Positions 26,073-26,173 of a stretch of 50,145 nt of DNA are shown piece after piece. Location: NCBI GenBank assembly GCA_964611205.1, contig CAZSZB010000003.1:89764-139908 (forward strand). The letters are read 5' to 3'. Each line of letters starts with the position of its first letter. Positions within the stretch are counted from its first letter, which is position 1. This DNA comes from an uncultured Candidatus Saccharibacteria bacterium. Lineage in GTDB: Bacteria > Patescibacteriota > Minisyncoccia > Phycocordibacterales > UBA918. A model generated the notes under the pieces. The model made no database searches and was not told the origin of the DNA. It saw only the letters and a program-made list of their open reading frames with translations. Position numbers and translations under genes: made by a program.

Positions 26073-26173
26073 ACCCAGCTCCACTTTCCGCTGTCATTTA
26101 TTTACAGATATGATAACGAAATTTAGTCGGAAGTAACACATAAGATAAATAATTTCTGAAAGTGGGGCTGGGT
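26073..26173 (+). repeat. Inverted-repeat hairpin element (CCCAGC family), copy A
   Basis: acccagctccactttc / gaaagtggggctgggt, 16 bp with one G.U. Confidence 0.75.

Follow-up and report, generated by a model that had tools for sequence, protein, structure and literature searches.

The DNA analysed here, termed the window, is a stretch of 50,145 nucleotides (nt) from an uncultured Candidatus Saccharibacteria bacterium (contig CAZSZB010000003.1, positions 89,764 to 139,908) with the character of a genome piece from the candidate phyla radiation (CPR): it has 40% GC and carries ribosomal protein (r-protein) and tRNA-synthetase genes together with an unlinked 23S rRNA gene that contains an intron. 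Hairpins of about 100 nt with closely similar CCCAGC arms lie in the spacer between rplC and rplD (copy A), in the 23S rRNA (copy B) and in its intron (copy C), as listed in Table 1. A first-pass annotation of the window had placed these three copies, had added a diverged fourth (copy D) beside efp and had taken the group for a small mobile cassette. The positions of A, B and C are confirmed: a covariance model trained on 60 hairpins from other genomes, with the window sequence excluded, recovers all three at 53–59 bits (E 2e-12 to 8e-11; A 59.3 bits, E 2e-12; B 58.6 bits; C 53.4 bits) and finds nothing significant beyond them in the window. The similarity of the arms likewise stands above the null expectation, with 10 matches to the arm pattern at up to two mismatches versus 0.58 expected, a number reached in none of 100 shuffles.

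Table 1. Coordinates of the hairpin copies in the window and of the features that surround them.
Feature	Position	Strand	Description
rplC (L3)	25415-26038	+	Pfam PF00297; 5' neighbour of copy A
rplC-rplD spacer	26039-26214	+	composite cassette: 5' box, hairpin A, 3' segment
Copy A	26074-26172	+	arms 26074-26087 / 26159-26172; terminal stem of 16 bp, U.G at position 7
rplD (L4)	26215-26898	+	Pfam PF00573; 3' neighbour of copy A
Copy D	31087-31166		stable 80-nt hairpin in the spacer from efp (minus strand) to a sigma-70-family gene; arms CCAGCCTTATTTC
23S rRNA gene	47138-50145	+	runs past the window end; host of copies B and C
Copy B	48975-49079	+	arms 48975-48988 / 49066-49079; near-perfect foldback with 51-nt arms, U.G at position 7
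Group I intron	49273-49578	+	no open reading frame; 23S domain IV; ends inferred by manual alignment
Copy C	49411-49515	+	arms 49411-49424 / 49502-49515; stem mismatches C.U and C.A

The stem of copy A grows to 17 bp when the closing pair A26073-U26173 is included. Copy B makes up the entire hairpin between ...CUUCGGGAUAAGGCCUG and CCGCAGCGAAAG... of the 23S rRNA, which, judged from the E. coli and B. subtilis sequences, we take to be helix 63 (H63). Copy C forms P8 in a group I intron, that is, the hairpin between P3' and J8/7 of the core, and is followed by the J8/7 sequence UGAAGAUAGAGUC in the alignment to Rfam RF00028 (match at 49315-49543; 33 bits, E 9e-7, under the 50-bit gathering score of that model). 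The intron appears as a 309-nt insertion in the alignment of the large subunit (LSU) rRNA, with inferred junctions at exon ...CUAAGGU, intron ...AUAG and 3' exon AGCGUAUUUCC, roughly at E. coli position 1931. Its first ~25 nt (49273-49300; AGAGCGCATTTGCTTCGGTAAGT) are very similar to those with which the 3' exon begins (49579-49604; AGAGCGTATTTCCTTGTCGGGTAAGT), a likeness that may reflect a duplicated exon segment or a feature related to P10 or a guide. All three copies fold more stably than shuffled sequences (z-scores of -5.7 for A, -10.2 for B and -5.2 for C, with a folding energy of -58.3 kcal/mol for B). As had been noted from the letters alone, their interiors are mutually unrelated, with a global identity of 57–62% that equals the shuffle null, and A and B have in common a U.G pair at stem position 7, where C has C.A plus one more mismatch elsewhere; this wobble is also a frequent variant of the wider family (9 of 60 copies). 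In the case of copy D the proposed membership does not hold at a significant level: the hairpin is stable (fold z-score -4.9), yet it reaches only 14.8 bits in the covariance search (E about 0.7, the top of the noise), and its arms resemble the CCCAGC family in part only. Since the relative L124 (positions 95-168) carries nearly identical D-type arms (CCCAGCCTCATTTC), copy D may belong to a diverged sister family, and its membership in the CCCAGC family is doubtful.

Further copies in other CPR genomes, for which the annotation had proposed a search, proved to be numerous: a two-arm pattern (CCCAGCNCNACTTT, a gap of 60-90 nt, AAAGTNGNGCNGGG) run against species-representative genomes gave at least 119 loci from at least 73 assemblies, which are metagenome-assembled genomes (MAGs). 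Among the matches listed, 61 of 73 assemblies are labelled CPR/Patescibacteria or plain 'bacterium', with Kerfeld-, Kaiser-, Yonath-, Nomura-, Komeili-, Zambryski-, Doudna- and Taylorbacteria, Saccharibacteria and Paceibacteria as the named CPR groups, and the remainder comprises Deltaproteobacteria (5), Thermodesulfobacteriota (2), Terriglobia (1) and auto-labelled Gammaproteobacteria (4); the copies labelled Deltaproteobacteria are flanked by ordinary housekeeping genes. CPR/Patescibacteria account for nearly all of the loci listed, and a few are labelled Desulfobacterota. Viral contigs gave no match to the arm pattern, for which reason carriage by phages was dropped as an explanation. The matches listed contain at least 129 hairpins with a length of 89-114 nt and a sharp mode at 101-104 nt, and there are shorter forms with identical arms and loops of 4-45 nt. 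Three copies lie in the 50 kb of the window, and the MAGs JAYUIJ01, WFTA01 and JBBTRH01 have at least 5-6 loci each. The family is thus small, non-coding and multicopy, as are MITEs (miniature inverted-repeat transposable elements).

Each copy ends in a terminal inverted repeat (TIR) of the form (A)CCCAGC-N-C-Y-ACTTT plus three variable but complementary bases, most frequently with the arm CCCAGCACCACTTT. All 60 aligned copies show 14 fixed and 3 covarying terminal pairs, as expected of the inverted repeats of a MITE, although most of the arm identity seen is imposed by the search pattern itself. Stem position 7 is A-U in 33 of these copies, C-G in 12 and U.G in 9, and covariation is seen at positions 7 and 9. 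Pairs 15-17 vary freely in sequence and are formed in 97%, 88% and 80% of copies, beyond which pairing decays. The AT-rich interior is likewise free: the aligned copies have no conserved position past pairs 15-17, which led us to reject a conserved interior motif or a ribozyme core. Subfamilies do have common subterminal sequences, such as GTCATTTATT, found in window copy A, in two Kaiserbacteria spacers, 3' of rplL in a Paceibacterota genome and in P3 of a Saccharibacteria RNase P RNA. The element corresponds to no Rfam model and was rejected as a known RNA family: at the gathering threshold the LSU rRNA was the sole match in the whole window, and permissive E-values around copy C gave only RF00028 (the host intron) and spurious miRNA matches, with the copy A region scanned at the gathering threshold only. 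Full-text literature searches gave no description of a hairpin family with shared arms in CPR. In agreement with the first-pass annotation, which had not recognised a described family, we conclude that the CCCAGC palindromic repeat is previously undescribed and represents a new MITE-like family, akin also to the intervening sequences (IVS) of rRNA; it stands out by the phylogenetic breadth and the range of hosts over which it occurs and by a choice of target that repairs itself.

Comparison of filled with empty sites, which the annotation had suggested, speaks for insertion. We collected 80 relatives via L4 (42-74% identity), 64 of which have both rplC and rplD: the spacer measures 176 nt in the window versus 1-40 nt in the 10 closest of the 64, and a CCAGC-armed hairpin is present in 0 of the 64. 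Unrelated palindromic hairpins occupy the same spacer in eight loci (L130, L140, L170, L185, L192, L172, L156 and L138), for example ATCCCGTTAGAGG..CCTCTAACGGGAT in three of them and a foldback of ~130 nt that starts with AATCCGAATATCGAAAT.., and this spacer looks like a hot spot at which hairpin elements from several families have settled.

A second comparison concerns the 23S rRNA, where the classical IVS are stem-loops that replace the tips of H9, H25 or H45. A Yonathbacteria 23S gene (L088) carries family members in exactly this manner in the H9 region, H25 and H45, in addition to one that forms P8 of another group I intron (4601-4661), and locus L062 has a member at H25. The window 23S is empty at H25 and H45 (18 and 28 nt), where L088 is filled; conversely, H63 is a 28-nt hairpin in L088 (TCCAGCTCTTTC-TTCG-GAAAGGGCTGGA) versus 107 nt in the window. 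Copy B, in H63, lies outside the classical IVS sites. Orthologous sites thus occur both filled and empty, between distant lineages rather than between strains. In the H9 region the window has a 76-nt extra hairpin relative to the Rfam LSU model (47354-47430), whose arms, GGAACTTTCTTTCTGATCG.., are unrelated to the family; L088 has at this site a 325-nt insertion with family arms. CPR ribosomes have been described with shortened H9 and H63, the latter surface-exposed (PMC9297842), and a 2024 survey reported short uncharacterized insertions at IVS sites of CPR 23S genes that were presumed to be IVS (PMC11270868).

The flanks of the hairpins carry footprints of insertion. Among the matches listed, an exact flanking direct repeat of 4-5 bp is present in 40 of 131 copies (~30%), versus ~1.7 expected as estimated from the base composition of the flanks; the window copies A, B and C are without such a duplication. 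With all copies brought to a common strand, TTGA (23) leads among the repeats, followed by TTTA (6), TTCA (4) and TTAA (2). Where both flanks read TTNA, the variable base is identical on the left and right in 37 of 45 cases, whereas 16.6 would be expected from the table marginals under independence: agreement this far beyond independence favours a true target duplication and disfavours insertion without duplication of the IS200/IS605 type. In addition, 33 hairpin sides adjoin TTGAC among the matches listed, and of these hairpin-adjoining TTGAC motifs 55% have a good -10 box 16-18 nt downstream, versus 10% of other TTGAC motifs in the same loci (p 2e-9). The normalised arrangement, nnnTTGA[hairpin]TTGACA-17-TAnnnT, is on the evidence of these motifs an apparent insertion into the -35 box of a sigma-70 promoter that is restored by the duplication. 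A further type of target is found at the 5' end of type IV pilin genes (11 of 132 hairpins, this total being 129 from the loci listed plus the three window copies): the arm here encodes ..(K)SGAG|FTLIE, the Phe-Thr codons offer TTYA as the target, and the essential glycine comes from the terminal GGG of the element. Pilins without the element in the same loci have unrelated leaders, which led us to reject an origin of the arms from pilin leaders.

Other arrangements point to repeated insertion or recent copying. Locus L021 contains tandem copies in which one tetranucleotide occurs three times (TAAA-hairpin-TAAA-hairpin-TAAA), and nested copies are found in L087 and L117. MAG S139_112 holds 5-7 similar copies, and further clusters with similar interiors within one genome occur in other MAGs; in one Kaiserbacteria MAG the hairpins of two spacers are 93% identical with different flanking boxes. 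Stem mismatches counted on the sense strand are G.U in 9 and C.A in 13 cases, which in this small sample shows no bias towards the transcribed strand. Such symmetry is expected of a palindrome maintained at the DNA level and argues against purely RNA-level selection, and selection on the RNA strand was accordingly not favoured.

Outside the 23S rRNA, the family is also found in RNase P RNA genes, as P3 and, in a short form, in the P15-17 region. These genes match Rfam at E 1e-10 to 1e-26 and fall short of the gathering score, presumably because of the insertions. A single RNase P RNA can hold three modules (L115, L004) and a single 23S rRNA 4-5 (L088), and group I introns in L088 and L118 also hold family hairpins. 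Most of the remaining copies lie between co-directional genes, ~70 nt past a stop codon, with pilins, PilB, PilC, prepilin peptidase and r-protein genes as recurring neighbours. In locus L010 (6931-7111) a family hairpin immediately follows a tRNA gene, and beyond the hairpin come 10 nt (TGCGGGTAGA) whose reverse complement is the 3' end of the tRNA (CCTACCCGCA), which lengthens the stem into the tRNA.

Copy A is part of a larger arrangement. A conserved unit of ~170 nt holds 15-20 of the 132 hairpins, copy A included, and the window spacer aligns with 14 such cassettes of other genomes, each directly upstream of a start codon. In gene sense the cassette opens with the 5' box AATAAyGAGCGnAGCGAcTATATTTTT, continues with the hairpin and closes with a 3' segment that reads TGGTGATTTTnATAGTCGCTnCGCTCnTTAAAAATCnnCC or is a TCTAAGA/TGTAAGA variant; in the window, the 5' box is GAGTGAAGCGAAT (26048-26060) and the 3' segment TGTAAGAATTTCTAATTCACAAGTTCATAAGAAATATCTAAC, which extends up to the rplD ATG (26215). 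The two boxes are inverted repeats of each other, and once the 15 aligned cassettes are oriented by their downstream ATG, all have one and the same type of box on the side of the start codon. The genes downstream, identified from their N-terminal translations, are rplP (three genomes), rpmI, rplE, rplX, rpsE, rplD, nusA and pilC. At the filled orthologous sites upstream of rplP (Kaiserbacteria, Nomurabacteria and another MAG) the arms are kept and the interiors diverge. One relative (L141) has a cassette with a short hairpin of 48 nt, and a search for cassettes lacking a hairpin found none.

Complementarity to the bases that end at the start codon is seen in the 10-12 nt directly 3' of the hairpin (mean duplex z-score -2.8), with compensatory differences between cassettes (UGAUGA/UCAUCA, UGGCGA/UC(A)GCCA, UGCUCAAU/AUUGGCA). 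RNAalifold predicts the inner hairpin alone on the cassette, and the outer and anti-start helices are provisional for this reason, with duplex energies and the visible compensatory changes as their basis; the two outer pairings cross and would be either alternatives or a strained pseudoknot. The predicted fold of the window spacer is one long interrupted hairpin in which the last rplC codons and the stop region pair with the rplD start, and a spacer folded in this manner may keep rplC and rplD coupled despite the insertion.

Taken together, the insertion footprints and the empty sites make a non-autonomous mobile palindrome the best reading: the hairpins are probably copies of a non-coding, MITE-like palindromic repeat of ~100 bp that is mobile in DNA and tolerated as a harmless stem-loop. 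The mobile MITE/IVS-like cassette of the first-pass annotation is in this respect supported by the number of loci, the empty sites, the duplications and the occupied IVS helices of L088. Judged from the footprints, the element would spread at the DNA level by insertion into TTNA(C) with a 4-bp duplication; the preferred target would be the -35 hexamer of sigma-70 promoters (TTGAC), to be remade by the duplication, and the second target TTTAC/TTCAC at the Gly|Phe-Thr codons of prepilins, where the arm would then encode a new ..KSGAG|F leader end. Copies would survive only where a self-contained stem-loop does no damage, namely in intercistronic spacers (copy A), at the tips of surface helices of structural RNAs (23S H63 for copy B; elsewhere H9/H25/H45 and RNase P P3) and in the peripheral P8 of group I introns (copy C). 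The RNA copy would fold on itself and leave its flanks adjacent, which for copy A would place the rplC stop beside the rplD start, as in the predicted fold. In rRNA, by analogy with classical IVS, the copy might be either retained as an expansion segment or removed by RNase III, and a perfect stem of 17-19 bp would be a plausible substrate for this enzyme.

Several observations weigh against an element that is simply mobile and tolerated. A search of ~850 kb around the hairpins, where the neighbours are housekeeping genes, turned up neither a transposase nor an autonomous partner with the same ends, and the larger copies carrying an open reading frame (ORF) for which the annotation had proposed a search did not appear: across loci L001-L119, no arm pair encloses an ORF and no transposase family recurs. 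Proteins of ~180-210 residues with a PaaX central Cas2-like domain do recur (L074, L100, L014, L082, L030, L018, L047); being kilobases from the hairpins and never adjacent to them, they were rejected as a partner. About 70% of the copies, A, B and C among them, have no recognisable duplication, and in structural RNAs the element replaces a whole helix instead of being inserted into a loop. The short H63 of L088 already has the same basal 8 bp and the same wobble; since it matches the arms in this way, the arms may derive from H63, or gene conversion rather than transposition may act there; alternatively, H63 in L088 may have been overwritten by a short form of the element. Identical 14-nt arms over very deep lineages, combined with scrambled interiors, suggest selection on the arms in place, in keeping with the drift of interiors between unchanged arms at orthologous filled sites, and the covariation of free stem positions exceeds the needs of a TIR that merely binds a transposase. 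Finally, the fixed orientation of the cassettes and the covarying helix at the start region look, from the aligned sequences, functional beyond mere tolerance.

It is the covariation, the conservation of the arms, the replacement of whole helices and the oriented cassette, all of which sit badly with a purely selfish element, that lead us to retain a functional reading, albeit as an unlikely one: the stem could be a dedicated module by which a CPR protein or RNase recognises RNA, in the manner of the K-turn and L7Ae of archaea; it would have been placed in mRNA leaders and introns as well as in rRNA and RNase P RNA, and in the composite cassette would serve as the sensor arm of a translational switch. 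In this form, for which we see a smallish chance, a portable RNA module would have spread through DNA mobility and been co-opted both in 23S and RNase P expansions and in an intercistronic switch, where the 5' box, the hairpin and the strand opposing the start codon might control the translation of many r-protein, nusA and pilus genes in bacteria of the Parcubacteria type without Shine-Dalgarno pairing. It would account for the retention of a 14-nt arm sequence, beyond mere pairing, across many CPR classes, for the presence of three modules per RNase P RNA and 4-5 per 23S rRNA, for the kept arms upstream of rplP, for a cassette with one orientation, an adjacent start codon and compensated anti-start pairing, and for the lack of cassettes without a hairpin. 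Against it stand the footprints of DNA insertion (4-bp duplications, copies upstream of the transcription start at promoters, tandem and nested copies), an rRNA position that depends on the lineage (H63 in the window; the H9 region, H25 and H45 in L088), the sense strand without an excess of G.U over C.A, arm identity that is partly an artefact of the search pattern and a search that has yielded no candidate protein.

Three other explanations fare worse. A palindrome that binds protein at the DNA level and is not transposable, such as an operator, a nucleoid or insulator site, a recombinase site or an uptake signal near highly expressed genes, would suit the strand symmetry and the enrichment beside promoters, type IV pilus genes, r-protein operons and stable-RNA genes, and CPR bacteria are thought to rely on pilus-mediated DNA uptake. 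We nevertheless give it little credence: the half-sites are ~73 bp apart with a free spacer between them, copies lie within rRNA, RNase P RNA and coding leaders, the density of ~3 per 50 kb is well under that of known uptake sequences, and flanking duplications together with empty sites require an insertion event. More improbable still is autoregulation by mimicry, in which the rplC-rplD hairpin would imitate the H63 site of a protein encoded in the operon. The 14-nt stem common to A and B, wobble included, the same basal stem and wobble in the native short H63 of L088 and the concentration of cassettes in r-protein operons are what one would expect of a mimic; in E. coli, however, L3, L4, L23 and L2 bind 23S domains other than that of H63, and the same stem recurs in H25, H45, RNase P RNA, intron P8 and pilin genes and upstream of nusA and pilC. 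The rRNA position, moreover, varies between lineages, all 64 related rplC-rplD spacers, those of the closest relatives included, are without the hairpin, and H63 is shortened and surface-exposed in CPR (PMC9297842). For much the same reasons, the alternative offered by the first-pass annotation, a stem that couples rRNA maturation to r-protein mRNA, fits poorly with a hairpin that occupies different helices in different lineages and occurs three times in one RNase P RNA, in pilin leaders and at promoters. Chance or convergent similarity of unrelated hairpins, for which nothing speaks except the shortness of the arms, has a negligible probability and was rejected on the arm-pattern statistics, the 119 or more loci and the E-values of the covariance model.

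Among known systems, the mobile palindrome that we favour comes close to the Correia elements of Neisseria (CREE/NEMIS) and to RUP, ERIC, Nezha and Chunjie: these are likewise non-coding palindromes of ~100-150 bp with terminal inverted repeats that have a short target duplication, lie between genes, are co-transcribed and fold into a long hairpin. Correia insertions create or keep promoter elements, and their transcripts are RNase III substrates. The family differs from these MITEs in its target (TTNA with a 4-bp duplication, not TA), in an interior that is not conserved, in its spread over many lineages of class or phylum level instead of one genus and in its presence within rRNA, RNase P RNA, introns and a signal-peptide coding region. 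The 23S IVS of Salmonella, Campylobacter, Leptospira, Coxiella and Rhizobiales are sporadic stem-loops of ~100 nt at the tips of H9, H25 and H45, helices at which L088 and L062 carry the family; unlike them, the family has identical arms across different helices and at sites outside rRNA, and its window copy is in H63. Rickettsia palindromic elements (RPE; ~100-150 bp) are tolerated inside protein and stable-RNA genes as well as between genes, and are usually in frame in many protein genes, whereas coding insertions of the present family, which is unrelated in sequence, have been seen only in the cleaved prepilin leader. Mobile palindromes are also found in organelles, namely the GC clusters of yeast mitochondria, the PstI palindromes of Neurospora and the double-hairpin elements of Allomyces; these short mobile hairpins lie in introns, in spacers and in the variable regions of rRNA, are flanked by short duplications and have no known enzyme. 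The family is set apart from them by its bacterial host, unrelated sequence and far more conserved ends.

Repetitive extragenic palindromes (REPs) and the mosaic elements built of them (BIME), with their Y1 HUH transposases (RAYT), are intergenic palindromes too, from which the family differs by the lack of a GTAG/CGTC tag, a threefold greater length, target duplications and its absence from the flanks of the window Y1 gene. This gene (40002-40694) encodes a protein of 230 residues with an HFHLIL motif and a match to Pfam Y1_Tnp (IS200-like HUH transposase; 27 bits, E 5e-6); within 39904-40791 it is flanked not by CCCAGC arms but by four copies of the 17-nt palindrome CCTTAGTCNGACTAAGG, two per side (4 vs 0.23 expected). 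The ORF and its palindromes look like a REPtron (RAYT plus REPs) in a CPR genome and are unrelated to the CCCAGC arms.

Should the favoured reading be correct, one repeat family would account for much of the unexplained short 'insertion sequences' in CPR rRNA, for the expansions that hold CPR RNase P RNAs under the Rfam thresholds and for long spacers in otherwise compact r-protein operons. It would also tie a bacterial rRNA IVS directly to a MITE-like element with insertion footprints, which makes the old question of IVS origin testable, and insertion into the -35 hexamer and the prepilin cleavage codons, both of which would be regenerated, would amount to a 'safe-landing' strategy in tiny genomes. 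On the practical side, the covariance model of the element can mask the insertions and in this manner improve the annotation of rRNA and other non-coding RNA in CPR genomes.

Some other features of the window deserve mention. The gene order at 24217-29858 is unusual: rplC-rplD-rplW-rplB stand isolated, with rpsJ missing before and rpsS/rplV missing after the block. The upstream neighbour is VanY, on the opposite strand, the downstream neighbours are rpsF-ssb, and an imperfect inverted repeat of 92 nt (25282-25373) lies upstream of rplC. The gap between rplB and rpsF (28180-28830; 650 nt) is gene-free and rich in hairpins, contains a perfect 41-nt palindrome (TACTAAGTAAAATCTGCAC..GTGCAGATTTTACTTAGTA) twice (28388-28428 and 28654-28694) and gave no Rfam match at E<=0.01, no tRNA and no tmRNA; it may be a structured RNA or a cluster of other palindromic repeats. 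A pair of 27-nt palindromic repeats (TATAGAAGTAGTCTAAACTACTTCTAT) is found at 6010-6036 and 6106-6132, ~70 nt apart. On the minus strand, ftsK (33759-35995) consists of two overlapping ORFs (34460-35995 and 33759-34487), which may reflect a frameshift or a split gene. Finally, an isoleucyl-tRNA synthetase-like protein of 1179 residues (13765-17304) has a histidine-phosphatase domain (His_Phos_1) inserted at residues 527-703.

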